64,000 nucleotides of DNA from Polyangiaceae bacterium (GTDB lineage: Bacteria; Myxococcota_A; Polyangia; Polyangiales; Polyangiaceae), in NCBI GenBank assembly GCA_050287085.1, contig JBNKBE010000006.1, positions 10,281 through 74,280 of the forward strand, given 5' to 3'. Below the pieces are notes generated by a model that ran no database searches, was not told where the DNA came from, and saw only the letters and a program-made list of their open reading frames with translations. The translations under genes were made by a program, and so were the position numbers. Below are positions 4,179 to 12,512 of this stretch, piece by piece (the stretch's first letter is position 1; the number at the start of each line of letters is the position of its first letter).

Positions 4179-4254
4179 GGCGGACCCGGCCCGAGGCGCC
4201 GCTTGCGCGTGTACAAAAGCTCCCGGCTCGCTTTTAGCCTTTCACCTGTTTGAC

Positions 4255-4283
4255 TTGTACCGCGCTGCCCGCGACGGTAGCCT
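4255..4283 (+). promoter_or_regulatory. Putative sigma70 promoter of the adenylate cyclase gene (leaderless-type)
   Basis: TTGTAC-17 nt-TAGCCT-8 nt-ATG(4292). Confidence 0.5.
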
Positions 4284-4291
4284 GCTCCAAC

Positions 4292-6043
4292 ATGGCGCGG
4301 TTAGTGCTTACAACGCCCGAAGGGCAGCAGACCGTCGACCTGCGGCCGCGCAACACGCTTGGGCGACACCCAAACAACTCGATCCAGCTGCTCGACAAGA
4401 TCGTCTCCAAGGAGCATTGCGTCATCGTCGAGCGCGGCGGAGCTTACGTGCTGCAGGACCTCGGCAGCCTCAACGGGACTTTCGTGGGCGGCGAGCGCGT
4501 GGTCGGCGAGCGGGAGCTCGTCGACGGCGACGAGATAGCCATGGGCTCCACGCGTGCTCGCTTCATTGCGGGCCTGCCGCACGCCAATCCCCCGAATGCT
4601 TCGTGGCCTGCGCCCGCCCAGCCCGCTGGCTTGTCGCCGCTGGAAAGTGCACACACCTTCCAGCTCCCCCCGGGCGGGCCGACGGGCACGCAGCCGATCC
4701 CAGCGCAGACCCGTCATCTCGCAAACCAAACGCGCGTGGACATGAGCGACGCCGGGCGCGCCATCGGCAATCAGATCGACGCGACGGCCCACGGCTTTCA
4801 GACCTACGCGGAACTCGCAAACAACCCTGCACAGCTGTCGGCCGACTACGAGCGACTGCGACTCTCCCACGAGCTTTCGCGAGAGATCGCACTCGAGCGC
4901 GACCTTCACTCCCTGCTCAACAAGATTCTGCAGAGCGTCTTTCGCTTCATCAGGGCAGACCGTGGGGTAATTTTCCTACGCGACGCGGCACAAGGTGGCG
5001 AGCTCCTGCCCTGCGCGAGCCTGCGCCGCGACGGCTCAAGCGACGCCATCAGCGTCTCGCAGACCATTCTGCAACACGTCATGCGCGAGCGAGCGACGGT
5101 GTTGACCCACGACGCAGCCATGGACTTTGCCGGCTCCCAGGGGCGCAGCATGATCTTGCACCGCATCAGCTCGGCAATCGTCGCGCCGCTGCTGCACAAC
5201 GACGACCTGCTCGGCGTGTTGTGGCTCGACAGCGAGACGCTGGCGCAGTTCCAAGCCAAAGATCTCGAAATGGTGACGTCGATCGCCGCCCAAGCGGCGA
5301 TGTTCATCGAGATCAACATCTTGGGTCGCAAGCTGCAGCAGGAAGCCGTAACCCGAGAACGCTTCAGCCGACTGCTCTCGCCCAACGTCGCCGAGAAGGT
5401 ATTGTCCGGCGACATGATCGTCGAAAAAGGCGGTCAGCTCGTCGATTGCACCGTCTTCAACTCGGACATCCGGGGTTTCACTCGGATGAGCGAAGGTGCT
5501 GACCCTGAAGCCGTGGTGGAACTGCTGAACGAGTACTTCGAACACATGGTGGAGACGATCTTCCGTTTCGAGGGTACGCTCGACAAGTTCATGGGTGACG
5601 GCATCATGGCCTTGTGGGGCGCGCCTGTTGCCCATCCGGACGATGCGCCCCGCGCTGTGGCGTCTGCGATCGAACAACTGCGACTGCTGAGTGAACTGAA
5701 CACCCGACGACGGGGTTCAACCCAATTGCCCCCCATTGAAATCGGCATCGGAATCCACACCGGCAAGGTGGTGGCGGGCTACATCGGAAGCTCGCGGGCG
5801 CTCTCGTACACGGTCATCGGCGACACCGCCAATACCAGCGCACGACTCTGTGGCGTTGCCGGGCCGGGGCAGCTCCTGGTGAGCGAAGCCACCTTGGCGG
5901 AGCTGGGCGCGATGTTTCAGTACCGCGAGCTAGAGCCCGTTCAGCTGAAGGGCAAGCGGAGCCCCTTCCGCATCTTCGAGATCTTACACAACCCCGCGCT
6001 GGCTCAGGTCCCCGCTGGCCTATCGTCGCGACCGCCGGGCTAA
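4292..6043 (+). CDS. FHA-GAF-class III adenylate/guanylate cyclase
   Basis: FHA (LGRHPNN, VSKEHC, DLGSLNGT), GAF domain, and cyclase motifs SDIRGFT, DKFMGDG, GIGIHTG, YTVIGDTANTSARL. Confidence 0.93.
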   Translation: MARLVLTTPEGQQTVDLRPRNTLGRHPNNSIQLLDKIVSKEHCVIVERGGAYVLQDLGSLNGTFVGGERVVGERELVDGDEIAMGSTRARFIAGLPHANPPNASWPAPAQPAGLSPLESAHTFQLPPGGPTGTQPIPAQTRHLANQTRVDMSDAGRAIGNQIDATAHGFQTYAELANNPAQLSADYERLRLSHELSREIALERDLHSLLNKILQSVFRFIRADRGVIFLRDAAQGGELLPCASLRRDGSSDAISVSQTILQHVMRERATVLTHDAAMDFAGSQGRSMILHRISSAIVAPLLHNDDLLGVLWLDSETLAQFQAKDLEMVTSIAAQAAMFIEINILGRKLQQEAVTRERFSRLLSPNVAEKVLSGDMIVEKGGQLVDCTVFNSDIRGFTRMSEGADPEAVVELLNEYFEHMVETIFRFEGTLDKFMGDGIMALWGAPVAHPDDAPRAVASAIEQLRLLSELNTRRRGSTQLPPIEIGIGIHTGKVVAGYIGSSRALSYTVIGDTANTSARLCGVAGPGQLLVSEATLAELGAMFQYRELEPVQLKGKRSPFRIFEILHNPALAQVPAGLSSRPPG

Positions 6044-7968: not shown

Positions 7969-9063
7969 ATGTTCCAGTTCAAAGGCCTCCGGCGCCTCGA
8001 AGACCTCGAGGTGACCAAGAATCGCGTACTTCTGCGCGCCGACCTCAACTGTCCGCTCGCACCCGATGGGTCGGTTGCCGACGACACCAAGCTACTAGCA
8101 GCGGTCCCCACCCTGAAGCAGCTGCTCGACGCAGAAGCGCAGGTCCTGATTGCAGCGCACCAGAACCCCCTTAGCGCCGACCAAAAAGCACCGAGCCTAG
8201 CGGCCGCTGCGGAGCGACTCGCCGAACTCACCGGAGTCGAGATCTTGCTCCCGGAACGCAACAGTCGCTTGCTGATCAATCGGCTGCTGGTCGACGCTGC
8301 GGGTGGACGTATCGTTCTGCTCGAGAATCTGCTGACCGAACCCGGTGAACTGACCGGCGATGACGGTTTGGCTCGACGGCTGGTCGAAGGCGCTCATTTC
8401 TATATCGGAGACTGCCTAGAAGCTCCGACAAGCGGCGCAAGCACCACCCGGGCGCCCAAGTTTTGTTCCGAGCGAGCGATGGGCATTGCGCTCGAACAAG
8501 AGCTGCTCTGGCTCCAGGAGTTTGAGTCGGTGCCTGCCGCGCAGCGCGCATTTGTACTGGGCGGCCCCTTCGACGAGGTGGAAGGTCCACTGCGCCGGCT
8601 CATGCGCCAGGGCCATACCGTCTGCGTGGGGGGCGATGCGGGGTTGCTCTTGGCACAAACGGAGGCCGGCACCTGCGACGGCCCCGAGGCGGCACGGGCC
8701 CGCACGCTGCTGGCCTCGGCACGCGACGCCGGTATCCAGCTGCTCCTGCCATCATCGGGTAAACGCGGAACGCGCCTTTTTTCAGCCGAAGCCCTAGCCA
8801 CGTTGAACGATAAGCTTAGCCGTGCCGCTATGGTGCTGGTGGGCGGCGAGCTGGACTCCGCGGGTAGCACCGCCACGTTGTGCCAGCTGCTCTGCGACTC
8901 AACACGGGTCGTTCTGGCGCTCCCCAACCCCCGCGCGCGTGGACTGGTGCCGCAGCCAGCGCCCAGCGGTCTGGCTTTTGTTTCGGCCGCCGGCACCGAG
9001 CTCCTTCGGCTGTTCTGCGGCTACAACTCCCCCGTGGTTGAGACCCTCCGCATGCCGAGTTAG
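7969..9063 (+). CDS. Phosphoglycerate kinase-fold protein, highly degenerate (probable pseudo-enzyme)
   Basis: Lies between gap and tpiA. Residual PGK scaffold is visible (RVLLRADLNCP, DDTKL, VLLENL, FVLGG, VCVGG, FVSAAG...PVVETL), but catalytic and ligand residues are substituted. Confidence 0.85.
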   Translation: MFQFKGLRRLEDLEVTKNRVLLRADLNCPLAPDGSVADDTKLLAAVPTLKQLLDAEAQVLIAAHQNPLSADQKAPSLAAAAERLAELTGVEILLPERNSRLLINRLLVDAAGGRIVLLENLLTEPGELTGDDGLARRLVEGAHFYIGDCLEAPTSGASTTRAPKFCSERAMGIALEQELLWLQEFESVPAAQRAFVLGGPFDEVEGPLRRLMRQGHTVCVGGDAGLLLAQTEAGTCDGPEAARARTLLASARDAGIQLLLPSSGKRGTRLFSAEALATLNDKLSRAAMVLVGGELDSAGSTATLCQLLCDSTRVVLALPNPRARGLVPQPAPSGLAFVSAAGTELLRLFCGYNSPVVETLRMPS

Positions 9064-9124
9064 GGTCTCGAAACGCCCCCCTGCCCCGCCGTCCAAAGCG
9101 ATGGCCGAAAAGAAAGACACGCCC

Positions 9125-9877
9125 ATGACAGACCGACGCCCCTTGATTGCCGGAAACTGGAAAATGAACTGCGGAGCTCCGGCCGACCTCGCACTGGCTC
9201 GCGCCGTCGCCTCAGGCGCAAGCGCCACCAGCGCGGAGCTCGTCGTGGCTCCGCCCTTCACCTTGCTGGCCCAGGCCGCTTCCGAGCTGAGCGGTGGTCC
9301 CGTCGCGCTAGCAGCCCAGAACGTCCACCAGGAAGCTAGCGGTGCCTACACCGGTGAAGTATCCGCCTCCATGCTGAAAGCCGCGGGCGTCCAATGGGTG
9401 ATCATCGGACACAGCGAGCGCCGGCAATATTTCGGCGAAACAGACGACTTGGTGCTGGCCAAGACCCGTGCCGTATTTGCGGCAGAGCTCAAGCCCATGG
9501 TCTGCATCGGAGAAACCCTCGAAGAGCGGGAAAGCGGCAGAACGCTCGAGGTTGTCTTCAAGCAGCTCGACGCCGTGGCGGGCGCCCTCGCCGAGCACGA
9601 GGGCGTCGGAGTCATCGCCTACGAGCCCGTCTGGGCCATCGGCACGGGCAAGGTCGCCACCCCGGAGCAAGCGGACGAGGTCCATGCGGCCATTCGCGAG
9701 CGCCTTGCACTGACGAGCGGCTCGCTGGCCAACAACACGCGTATCCTCTACGGCGGCAGCGTGAAGCCAGGAAACGCTGTAGAATTAATGAGTTGCACCA
9801 ACATCGACGGAGCGCTAGTCGGGGGTGCGTCGCTCAACGCTGAGGACTTTCTGGCAATCGCTACCGCGGCGAAGTAA
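9125..9877 (+). CDS. tpiA: Triosephosphate isomerase
   Basis: AGNWKMN, IIGHSERR, AYEPVWAIGTG, LYGGSVK, LVGGASL. Alternative ATG at 9101. Confidence 0.98.
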   Translation: MTDRRPLIAGNWKMNCGAPADLALARAVASGASATSAELVVAPPFTLLAQAASELSGGPVALAAQNVHQEASGAYTGEVSASMLKAAGVQWVIIGHSERRQYFGETDDLVLAKTRAVFAAELKPMVCIGETLEERESGRTLEVVFKQLDAVAGALAEHEGVGVIAYEPVWAIGTGKVATPEQADEVHAAIRERLALTSGSLANNTRILYGGSVKPGNAVELMSCTNIDGALVGGASLNAEDFLAIATAAK

Positions 9878-9961: not shown

Positions 9962-10807
9962 ATGCTCGAAGTATTTGAGACTCCAATCACCGTATTGCAC
10001 GTCCTGGTATGCCTTTTTCTCGTACTCATCGTGCTCATCCAGCCCGGCAAGAGCGGTGGGTTGGGTGCCGCTCTCGGCGGAGCGGGTGCGCAGCAAGTGT
10101 TCGGGGGGCGAGGCGCCGGTAACTTCCTGTCGCGAGCCACGTGGATCTGCGCAGGGACCTTCTTCTTGACGAGCATGGTCCTCGCCTACGTGTCCTCGTC
10201 GACCGGAGATAGCTTAGCTGAACGCACAGCGGCGGCGATCGGCCCCCTCGACGAGCCAGAAAGCGCCACCAAAACTGCGGACGAGCAGGTGAACGAGCAG
10301 GGCGCTGGCGAAAAGCAGGGCGCTGGCGAAAAGCAGGCCCCTGCGGACGAGCCAGGCGCCGCCACCCCCACAACCGGCGAAGGCGACGAGGCAAGTCCCG
10401 AGGCCGCTGCGAACTCTCCGGCGGGAGAAGCCGCCGGGAGCGAAGCCACCACCCCGGCACCGACCGCAAGCGCCTCCGCCGACGCAGCGCCCGCAACGGC
10501 GATCCCTGTGAAGCCGGCGCCGCCCGTGGCTCAGCCTATCAAGCTACCGACGCCCAACGCGCAGGCGACGCCCAACACAACGCTACAGCCCAAGGCGACG
10601 CCGGCAGCCCCCAAGTCGCCCTCTCCCCAGACGGCACCGCCAGCACCCGTTAGCGCCGCCCCCAAGACGCCCGCGCCCTCAGCACCGGCAGCCCCCATGC
10701 CCGCTGCGCCCCGCGCGCCCTCGGCCCCAGCTCCGGCCGCGCCCAGCGCTCAGGTCCCGTCGTCGGGAGCCACCCCCGCTGCGCCCGCTCCGGCGCCGGC
10801 GCCGTGA
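9962..10807 (+). CDS. secG: Preprotein translocase subunit SecG with long acidic then Pro/Ala/Thr-rich C-terminal tail
   Basis: HVLVCLFLVLIVLIQPGKSGGLG...FGGRGAGNFLSRAT, two TM helices, conserved position after tpiA. Confidence 0.9.
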   Translation: MLEVFETPITVLHVLVCLFLVLIVLIQPGKSGGLGAALGGAGAQQVFGGRGAGNFLSRATWICAGTFFLTSMVLAYVSSSTGDSLAERTAAAIGPLDEPESATKTADEQVNEQGAGEKQGAGEKQAPADEPGAATPTTGEGDEASPEAAANSPAGEAAGSEATTPAPTASASADAAPATAIPVKPAPPVAQPIKLPTPNAQATPNTTLQPKATPAAPKSPSPQTAPPAPVSAAPKTPAPSAPAAPMPAAPRAPSAPAPAAPSAQVPSSGATPAAPAPAPAP

Positions 10808-10934
10808 GCCAGCGGTGGGCCAAGCAGGCCCTCAGCGCTCTGCCAACGAAGCGGCGCACACGCCGGCTGCGTGACGCCGTGCTAGCGTGAGATCCCTCCC
10901 TCAGGGCAAAAAGCCCGATGGTATCGGAAGCGCT

Positions 10935-12512
10935 ATGGTCGAGCAGAAGCCGGTCGCCCCGGACCAGCGCCGCGCCGAACTGAGCGCGGCCACCTTCGCG
11001 CTGCTCAGTGTTGTGCTGATCGTGGCAGCCCACGGACTGGCCGTGGGCTGGGTGCGTTCGCAGGGTTTTTCCGCCATCAGCGATGACGACTATGCACGCG
11101 TCGTCATCGCCCAGCGCTTTGCACTGGCCCCCAAGTGCGACCCTTCCGGCACAAGCTGGCTGCCCTTCCCCTTTTGGCTCCTCGGCGCCGGACTCTCCGT
11201 ATTCGGGCTAGATCTAGACACCGCCCGGGGACTGAGCTTTGCCTTCAGCGCGGCCGGTCACGTGTTATTAGTGCCCGCCGGGCGTTGGCTTGGGCTTTCT
11301 CGGGGGTTCAGCTTGAGCCTTGCGCTGCTGCTGGCGCTGCTACCCGACGCCGTCTACGCGGGGGCCGCCACCGTGCCGGAAGGGTTCGTGCCCGCCCTCG
11401 CACTGGCAGCCGTCGCAGCGCTGAGCGCCACAGGGTGTTCGGGGGCTCGCGTCTGGCGCGGGTTCGGCGCCGTGATGCTCACGGCGGCCGCGTTGAGTCG
11501 CTACGAAATCTGGCCTCTGGTTGCGCTGAGCGCGCTGCGAGTCACAACGACGCGCGCTCTTGCGCGCCGCGAACGCGTTGCACTGGTGTCCACCCTCCTC
11601 TCCGGACCGCTCGCCTGGATGCTTGCCGGTCACTTTCAACACGGCAACTGGCTGTTCTTCGTCAAGCGGGTTGCAGCATACCGGCAGGCTCTGGGGGAAG
11701 GTCACGTAACGCTCGGCCACGCCCTCAGTGACTACCCACGGGCGCTGCTACACTTCGAACCCGGGCTGCTGCTGGGGGTCGCCGGCTTGCTCCTGAGCGC
11801 AAGGCAAGCGCCGTGGAAGGCCTCCGAGCGGTGGCTGCTCGCTCATGTCGCAACCCTGATGGCGTTCCTCATCTACGGGGATCTCCGGGACGGTGCCCCC
11901 ACACATCATCCCGAACGCGCACTTCTCTTCGCGTGGTACGGCCTGGCGGCAGCGGCCGCCCTGCGCCTCGAATACCTAGGCCCCGCTCAGCGTCGCCGGA
12001 AGCTCTGGATGATTGCCACAACGCTGCTGGCCAGTCCCTTTCTTGCAGCCGCGATCACGCCGGAACGTCACTACGCCGAGCGCAGCGTCGAGGAGGCCTT
12101 GGGCCGCGACGCCGCCCGGCTCACCCAGGGGCGAGGGGTGATCGACCACCCCGACTACGGCTACTTCGCCCTCCAGGCCGCCCTCGCCCGCCCCGGCTCG
12201 AGTCAACCGCTCGACCGGCACGATCCCCGCGCGCCGACGCCGGATCCCTTCGCTGACCTGCAGGCGCTCTCGCAGGAGCTGACGCGGCAGCGAGCATCTT
12301 GGTGGGTGCTGCGCGACGACCATCGCCATCGCTTGGCGGCTGCCCCGCTGGGGCAAGTGCTGCTGGGGCCTGTGCTGGCTCAGCACGGCGCCTTCGCGCT
12401 ACTGGCTTTGGGTTCGAATCGTTCAGGTCCTGCCCCAAGCGACCCGGTAGCACCGGCAGCGGGCCCCACCACCAGCCCTTCGACCGCCGCAAGCACCGGA
12501 ATCTCGCCTTGA
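10935..12512 (+). CDS. Polytopic membrane protein, probable GT-C (ArnT/PMT-like) glycosyltransferase
   Basis: Acidic SDDDYAR motif after TM1, WLPFPFW, SRYE, about 11 hydrophobic segments and a C-terminal soluble domain. Confidence 0.55.
   Translation: MVEQKPVAPDQRRAELSAATFALLSVVLIVAAHGLAVGWVRSQGFSAISDDDYARVVIAQRFALAPKCDPSGTSWLPFPFWLLGAGLSVFGLDLDTARGLSFAFSAAGHVLLVPAGRWLGLSRGFSLSLALLLALLPDAVYAGAATVPEGFVPALALAAVAALSATGCSGARVWRGFGAVMLTAAALSRYEIWPLVALSALRVTTTRALARRERVALVSTLLSGPLAWMLAGHFQHGNWLFFVKRVAAYRQALGEGHVTLGHALSDYPRALLHFEPGLLLGVAGLLLSARQAPWKASERWLLAHVATLMAFLIYGDLRDGAPTHHPERALLFAWYGLAAAAALRLEYLGPAQRRRKLWMIATTLLASPFLAAAITPERHYAERSVEEALGRDAARLTQGRGVIDHPDYGYFALQAALARPGSSQPLDRHDPRAPTPDPFADLQALSQELTRQRASWWVLRDDHRHRLAAAPLGQVLLGPVLAQHGAFALLALGSNRSGPAPSDPVAPAAGPTTSPSTAASTGISP

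Follow-up and report, generated by a model that had tools for sequence, protein, structure and literature searches.

A glycolytic operon of the order gap-pgk-tpiA-secG lies within a 64,000-nucleotide stretch of a Polyangiaceae genome (GenBank assembly GCA_050287085.1, contig JBNKBE010000006.1, positions 10,281 to 74,280), referred to here as the window. Its pgk slot is occupied by a gene, designated pgk* and called the window copy below, that encodes a homologue of phosphoglycerate kinase (PGK) with both ligand sites lost. As an initial annotation had described, the gene is an uninterrupted open reading frame (ORF), with an ATG start, 364 codons and no internal stops, and the flanking gap and tpiA genes are canonical (Table 1). 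An in-frame TTG is present 4 codons 5' of the ATG, which is the start conserved in the nearest orthologues. The comparisons given below identify the window copy as the lineage's own native pgk, displaced by a horizontally acquired PGK, and place it as a seemingly late and strongly eroded member of a family of dead PGKs.

Table 1. Positions of the genes and features discussed, in window coordinates except for the imported PGK
Feature	Position	Strand	Basis
FHA-GAF-class III cyclase gene, native-locus marker in the family	4250..6043	+	synteny, domains
gap, canonical type I GAPDH of the native type; no other gap found in the genome	6815..7834	+	TIGR01534, 441 against a cut-off of 367
pgk*, native PGK homologue (364 aa) lacking both ligand sites	7969..9063	+	sequence, model, fold match
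N-domain strand-helix-strand segment, residues 91-114 of pgk*, eroded in this copy	8239..8310	+	alignment of dead copies
Site of the 21-residue in-frame C-domain deletion (DIGP loop)	8770..8790 (approximate)	+	alignment to intact native PGK
tpiA, canonical, separate ORF without fusion; second possible ATG at 9125	9101..9877	+	TIGR00419, 213 against a cut-off of 131
secG with a long Pro/Ala-rich tail	9962..10807	+	TIGR00810
Imported intact PGK	L001:1462-2682 = G000:C14	-	profile score, 19/19 positions

The encoded protein matches the PGK family model PF00162 at 117.9 bits (cut-off 27), compared with 513 bits for the other PGK of the same genome. PF00162 is the sole domain matched up to an E value of 1, with no CNB, HTH or PAS additions. 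All of the motif changes listed in the initial annotation are present in the alignment: the altered motifs read DDTKL, AHQNP, ENLLT, DCLEAPT, GGPFDEV, GGELDSAG and SAAGTE, and GGGD(S/T) is absent. Of 19 ligand and catalytic positions, labelled in human-type numbering, 4 are retained (D24, N26, H63, and G396). Within the 3-phosphoglycerate site (the basic patch and the D/N pair), 3 of 8 positions are kept (D24, N26, and H63), and all four arginines and H170 are lost; within the nucleotide site (two lysines, Asn, Glu, GGGD, and TGGG), 1 of 11 is kept and both lysines are gone. Section 3.1 of PMC7729029 sets out what the N-domain ligand set and most of the nucleotide site do.

The loss is less focused on ligand residues than was first claimed: 15 of the 19 ligand positions are indeed gone, but so are 29 of 53 other invariant positions. 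The window copy keeps 21% of the ligand positions and 45% of the others; the means for 64 to 66 dead loci are 36% and 67%. Relative to an intact native PGK, its deletions comprise 21 residues after LLLP, 6, 3+2, 2, and four single residues, all in-frame. The largest, recognized at the outset as a C-domain loss, takes out the conserved D-I-G-P loop. The conserved C-terminal LR is present, and the G+C content at third codon positions (GC3) is 0.725, the lowest among nine genes compared (range 0.725-0.811). When an intact pgk was allowed to drift neutrally in simulation until 35% identity remained, 8 of 2000 runs ended stop-free, with indels not counted; such a stop-free state is thus unlikely under drift. 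A scan for promoters and terminators inside the gene gave nothing useful.

An AlphaFold2 model built with 18 orthologues (pLDDT 86.9, pTM 0.87) predicts that the whole two-domain PGK fold is kept, consistent with the PGK scaffold seen earlier. The model aligns with Thermotoga maritima PGK (1VPE) over 353 of 364 residues (Z 37.5, root-mean-square deviation 2.9, 25% identity). For a typical dead member of the family (L077, alignment of 136), a predicted homodimer scored 0.00 twice against a mark of 0.42, which is evidence neither way.

Catalysis in glycolysis appears, judged by sequence, to be carried out in this genome by a second PGK (G000:C14:166013-167230), which retains all 19 ligand positions and lies outside any glycolytic operon. 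The initial annotation had called for either a second pgk or a bypass elsewhere; the former was found, whereas a bypass of the GAPOR type was not, there being no PF01314 match in the genome (96.8% complete). Enolase and iPGM are both present. Compared with solved structures, the second PGK scores 549-555 bits against mammalian PGKs, 535 against yeast, and at most 421 against bacterial ones. Its closest named relatives among 80 matches listed belong to Verrucomicrobiota and Planctomycetota (62-69% identity), and it is about 45% identical to the native PGKs of the family. This eukaryote-like type of PGK is common to Verrucomicrobiota, Planctomycetota and several genera of Polyangiaceae, and the imported PGKs fall into at least 3 separate clades. 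Near the imported pgk, L001:1-864 (minus strand) encodes a eukaryote-type glycogen synthase domain (PF05693).

All 17 same-genus genomes carry one strong and one weak PGK match. Weak copies and their flanks were fetched from samples of the family, the class and the phylum, and 79 dead copies were read. Their 78 genomes represent 16 genera or families of Myxococcota. The copies keep 2 to 14 of the 19 positions. None is truncated or interrupted by a stop, and almost every one occupies the native locus. The orthologues were gathered by genome searches, a homologue search with the window protein having returned canonical PGKs and, apart from these, a single distant dead copy. The 79 exclude L065 (from G064, with a run of Ns near its end), the partial L049, L053, L239 and L247, the solitary copies L086 and L244 (from genomes with an intact native gene, and with the conserved surface patch described below absent), L250 and L259 (degenerate and off the native locus), and copies with at least 15 of the 19 residues. 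A 692-codon PGK*-TPI frame in G064 is an assembly artefact of the run of Ns and not a fusion. Among representatives, a profile search gave 134 full-size proteins, of which 79 hold at most 13 of the 19 positions.

A screen of 317 genomes of the family found 70, in eight genera, that match no intact native PGK closely (an unpublished genome is not in this count). Sixty-four of these have at least two PGK matches, part of them read at the sequence level, four show only the dead copy, one carries that copy at a contig end, and one also lacks tpi; since tpi is missing too, the native locus of the last is probably unassembled. No clean deletion of the native pgk was seen among the 70.

The dead copies have several origins. 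With the ligand columns removed, a quick tree search (IQ-TREE, C20) on 35 chosen native copies requires 5 changes, at least 4 of them forced by starred branches, and a 58-row tree forces 3; on this evidence the dead native PGK arose at least four times in Myxococcota. One genus, g48, shows the series from intact through duplicated to eroding. There, single-copy natives have 19 of 19 positions in 9 of 9 cases, and 10 two-copy genomes picked for a still-similar native gene comprise 7 at 19 and 3 at 17, 15 and 15. K216, N26 (to Asp), R66 or G397 go first, and deeper copies of the genus hold 14, 13, 10, 8 and 7 of 19.

Other arrangements of PGK genes were encountered as well. In L222 (G319:C286), an imported pgk lies about 1.7 kb from an intact native pgk, between it and tpi and on the opposite strand, as a recent insertion. 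The genome G354 has an intact native gene and a second PGK in two pieces (G354:C1:8848887-8850058); this redundant copy is breakable, unlike the displaced natives. A second kind of dead PGK occurs in genus g79, where L086:2521-3705 (minus strand) and L244:1471-2640 (plus strand) are solitary and very divergent, with 4 of 19 positions and the N-domain patch absent; both adjoin peptidoglycan-binding genes, and the native pgk is intact in both genomes. The sole PGK of a reduced genome of the family (L240; G066, a single contig of 1.8 Mb) has His at basic-patch Arg66. Tandem multi-PGK proteins, bacterial and eukaryote-like and with some repeats degenerate, are represented by P0086, P0095, P0143, P0089, P0154 and P0164; the long matches among them (P0086, P0089, P0095, P0154, and P0164) are unrelated.

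The dead copies are under constraint. In a pairwise codon model (GY94 type, F3x4), the ratio of nonsynonymous to synonymous substitution rates (dN/dS) is 0.013-0.17 in 10 dead-copy pairs, with dS up to 1.0 and one genome in two pairs. For comparison, values are 0.023-0.035 for imported PGKs, 0.03-0.10 for tpi, and 0.016-0.033 for two pairs of intact single-copy genes, in which dS exceeds 2. Thus, the constraint is strong, yet weaker than that on the enzyme. Because of these values in close pairs, the family is not one of pseudogenes: dN/dS is far from 1, and stops and frameshifts are not seen in any of the 79 copies. The catalytic residues are gone and the fold positions retained, as in a pseudoenzyme. 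The preference of the initial annotation for a retained pseudoenzyme over a decaying pseudogene therefore holds for the family, in which purifying selection is evident; for the window copy itself, such selection is presumed.

The dead copies lose and keep particular residues. Few ligand positions survive (K216 in 5 of 79, N26 in 6, G397 in 9, and R66 in 13), and fold positions stay conserved. Asn26 has become Asp in 65 of 79 copies and in 15 of 16 groups, the window copy itself retaining Asn; D24 is kept in 73 and H63 in 56. The best-conserved stretch is N-domain residues 85-124, with the consensus EVxLPDDCxGDAAKKVVxDLRxGQ corresponding to residues 91-114 of the window copy, in which G108, D109 and R119 of the family are replaced. 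Several of the conserved residues mark the clade. In rows that are not independent of one another (79 dead, 58 intact native, and 82 foreign PGKs), R119 occurs in 69, 56 and 2, D109 in 62, 54 and 4, K113 in 55, 53 and 10, and the C-terminal Arg in 54, 47 and 0, respectively. From the strand order of the model, R119, R178 and their neighbours would lie where the parallel strands have their N-terminal ends, facing away from the substrate site. L209, L241 and L243 have insertions of 7-8 residues directly after the LR of this patch, with the Arg itself retained.

The neighbouring glycolytic genes have fared differently from pgk: displaced native gap and tpi appear to be deleted and displaced native pgk does not, because native gap is mostly gone and in genus g103 tpi is found only beside the imported pgk. 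A native-type gap (73-100% identical to the window gene) occurs in 3 of the 38 dead-pgk genomes selected, 34 having only a gap of 47-58% identity and 1 having none, with the own-genus genomes chosen partly for the lack of an adjacent gap; among genomes with an intact native pgk, it is present in 10 of 12. In the genus of the window, gap still adjoins the dead pgk in 13 of 18 cases and tpi is not adjacent in 7 of 17 loci; in part of the genus metG follows the dead pgk, or the dead pgk stands alone. In all 6 of the g103 genomes, the sole tpi adjoins the imported pgk (tpi identity alone separates native from foreign tpi poorly), and the dead pgk stays at its old locus before secG, with dN/dS of 0.07-0.17.

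The explanation that accounts best for these results, to which a probability of about 0.65 can be assigned, is that native PGK also serves in docking, a second job beyond the reach of foreign PGKs, and that import split the two jobs. The PGK of Myxococcota would be bifunctional, combining catalysis with docking on a partner. Once an imported eukaryote-like PGK takes over catalysis, the native pgk would stay as the own-lineage copy, losing its 3-phosphoglycerate and ATP sites and keeping the two-domain fold. The docking surface would be a phylum-specific face of the N-domain opposite the active site, comprising the helix before strand D (with D109, K113, and R119), R178, and the C-terminal Arg. 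Foreign PGKs are without this surface and hence could replace catalysis only; on this proposal, the native pgk therefore cannot be deleted. It would specialise as a non-catalytic subunit or adaptor, whose partner need not be the native GAPDH or the native TPI. Asn26Asp would probably close the phosphoglycerate pocket, keeping the dead protein from holding substrate. A bolder version is tentative and on balance doubtful: PGK would be a fixed structural part of a phylum-specific machine (for example in motility, polarity, cell organisation or RNA handling), docked by its N-domain helix in a role too important for the gene to be lost, and at each import the native copy would be actively switched off, through Asn26Asp and loss of the catalytic Lys, into a dedicated subunit.

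Several points weigh against the docking explanation. As descendants of native genes, the dead copies share some of the clade residues by inheritance; the patch might contribute to folding alone; and its surface position follows from the strand order of the model, not from coordinates. The role is deduced from sequence. The window copy is itself a poor exemplar: its patch match of 0.25 is the lowest of 64 dead copies (median 0.625), it has lost G108, D109 and R119 and kept Asn26, its end branch (2.5-2.7) is the longest among native-locus copies, and its dS is saturated against every relative (33% identity). The trees are quick searches without bootstrap in which deep branches join long branches, leaving the large dead clade uncertain. 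Every genome read is a draft assembly; one (G255; 100% complete, 620 contigs) shows the dead copy only. In addition, most dead loci still have tpi as the following gene.

The last of these points bears on the suggestion, made in the initial annotation, that the dead PGK is a scaffold or regulator of its glycolytic neighbours, binding GAPDH and/or TPI in native or imported versions. Both genes flank the window copy, tpi lies directly 3' in most dead loci of all classes and is mostly kept in its native version, and PGK-TPI fusions are known (NF010569, and those mentioned in PMC7729029). The suggestion is weakened, and now distinctly unlikely, given the scarcity of native-type gap in dead-copy genomes, the retention of a constrained dead pgk in g103, where gap and tpi are confined to the imported operon or its vicinity, and the loci in which tpi is not adjacent; the only apparent fusion, in G064, is artefactual. 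In the window, the bifunctional fusion model NF010569 scores 97.9 bits against a cut-off of 883, with pgk* and tpiA as separate ORFs. It is less probable still that the dead pgk is a jobless passenger of the operon, with stops purged by polarity on tpiA-secG and misfolding changes purged by high expression. Such a passenger would fit the position of dead pgk 5' of tpiA and/or secG in most loci, the conservation of fold-core positions above all others, and a dN/dS about 2-5 times that of active PGKs. However, gap has repeatedly been deleted cleanly from the same operon and pgk not once among the 70 screened genomes, the dead pgk persists where tpi and secG have moved off, and a clade-specific, probably exposed Arg outlasts many core positions.

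Compatible with the docking explanation, and the least implausible of the alternatives though still unlikely, is the idea that the family is functional but that selection on the window copy has relaxed and the gene is being lost. Its patch score, 21-residue deletion and branch length point this way, as does the loss of D278, D306 and G308, which 93-95% of other dead copies keep. Against this, the gene has no stop, its indels are in-frame, its start and C-terminal LR are conserved, its GC3 is 0.725 and the whole fold is modelled with confidence; moreover, among nine genomes its own ranks first or joint first in divergence for other genes as well, and identities are only 32-40% across the whole subclade, yet one pair there gives a dN/dS of 0.17. 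A new chemical or sensing role, with the D-x-D motif created by Asn26Asp and His63 forming a ligand or metal site, is slightly less probable than even the passenger idea. The frequencies of D24, D26 and H63 and the convergence in 15 groups would agree with it, but no other replacement residues are shared, pocket residues vary by lineage, the window copy has D-L-N, and Asn to Asp is a single transition favoured in GC-rich DNA. Finally, continued PGK activity with a divergent active site deserves almost no credence: the fold is whole and databases label such copies phosphoglycerate kinase, but 15 of 19 ligand positions are replaced or deleted, including all four basic-patch arginines and both lysines.

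Other genes near the window copy have features of their own. SecG (plus strand) carries about 190 additional C-terminal residues, an acidic stretch followed by the Pro/Ala-rich part. The FHA-GAF-cyclase gene heads the native glycolytic locus and is extremely conserved (dN/dS 0.015-0.019 in 7 pairs). It adjoins native pgk within the family, intact pgk included, and was not found beside copies from other orders; it was set aside as a candidate partner of pgk*, the adjacency being restricted to the family and shared by intact pgk. A membrane protein encoded at 10887-12512 (plus strand) has no Pfam match and is syntenic 3' of secG across the family; because one orthologue matches PMT_2, it is probably a GT-C glycosyltransferase.

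The dead PGKs appear to form a family of pseudoenzymes that arose repeatedly in Myxococcota through horizontal displacement, a clear case of such an origin with early and late stages within one genus. They would constitute a repeated natural experiment in which two jobs of a core glycolytic enzyme are separated and the surface of the hidden job is marked, so that a moonlighting role of myxobacterial PGK becomes directly testable. Since databases label dead copies phosphoglycerate kinase, metabolic reconstructions of the genomes that carry them credit the wrong gene. No publication on dead PGKs in Myxococcota was found in a literature search, subscription papers and supplements lying largely outside its scope. 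The eukaryote-like type of the imported PGK bears on the origin of eukaryotic PGK, for which bioRxiv 10.1101/2024.05.29.596406 suggests the Planctomycetota-Verrucomicrobiota group as a potential source. In this genome the working PGK groups with PGKs of that type and is nearest to eukaryotic PGKs among solved structures, but the likeness concerns the replacement gene and not the dead one.

Canonical PGK (EC 2.7.2.3; PF00162; Thermotoga maritima 1VPE, Campylobacter 3Q3V) shares with the window copy the two-domain fold and the position in gap-pgk-tpiA-secG; the window copy differs in its 4 of 19 ligand residues, its 21-residue C-domain deletion, and the intact second PGK of its genome. In Myxococcus xanthus, according to PMC10141889, the folded PGK MXAN_2816 inhibited growth of E. 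coli in vitro and is seemingly not secreted, the sole non-glycolytic PGK effect found in print for Myxococcota. MXAN_2816 is likewise a native myxobacterial PGK in a gap operon, but an intact enzyme. In Mycoplasma mobile, as reported in PMC11864180, the gliding motor carries a docked PGK, MMOB4530, and another homologue, MMOB4490, is without catalytic residues. This too is a bacterial PGK serving as a docked machine part, with a homologue minus catalytic residues beside it; however, the docked MMOB4530 is the active copy and binds through its C-domain, and nothing ties the window copy to a motor. 'Dead' PGK-like proteins, such as the axoneme-bound PGKL of Trypanosoma brucei, have been described in kinetoplastids (PMC7729029). 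These resemble the window copy in having a PGK scaffold without substrate-binding residues, in being kept beside active isoforms, and in the non-catalytic role proposed for them. They are eukaryotic, arose through gene duplication, and often carry CNB, HTH or PAS domains, whereas the dead PGK described here is bacterial, of a single-domain type, and would have come from horizontal displacement of a native gene, many times over.
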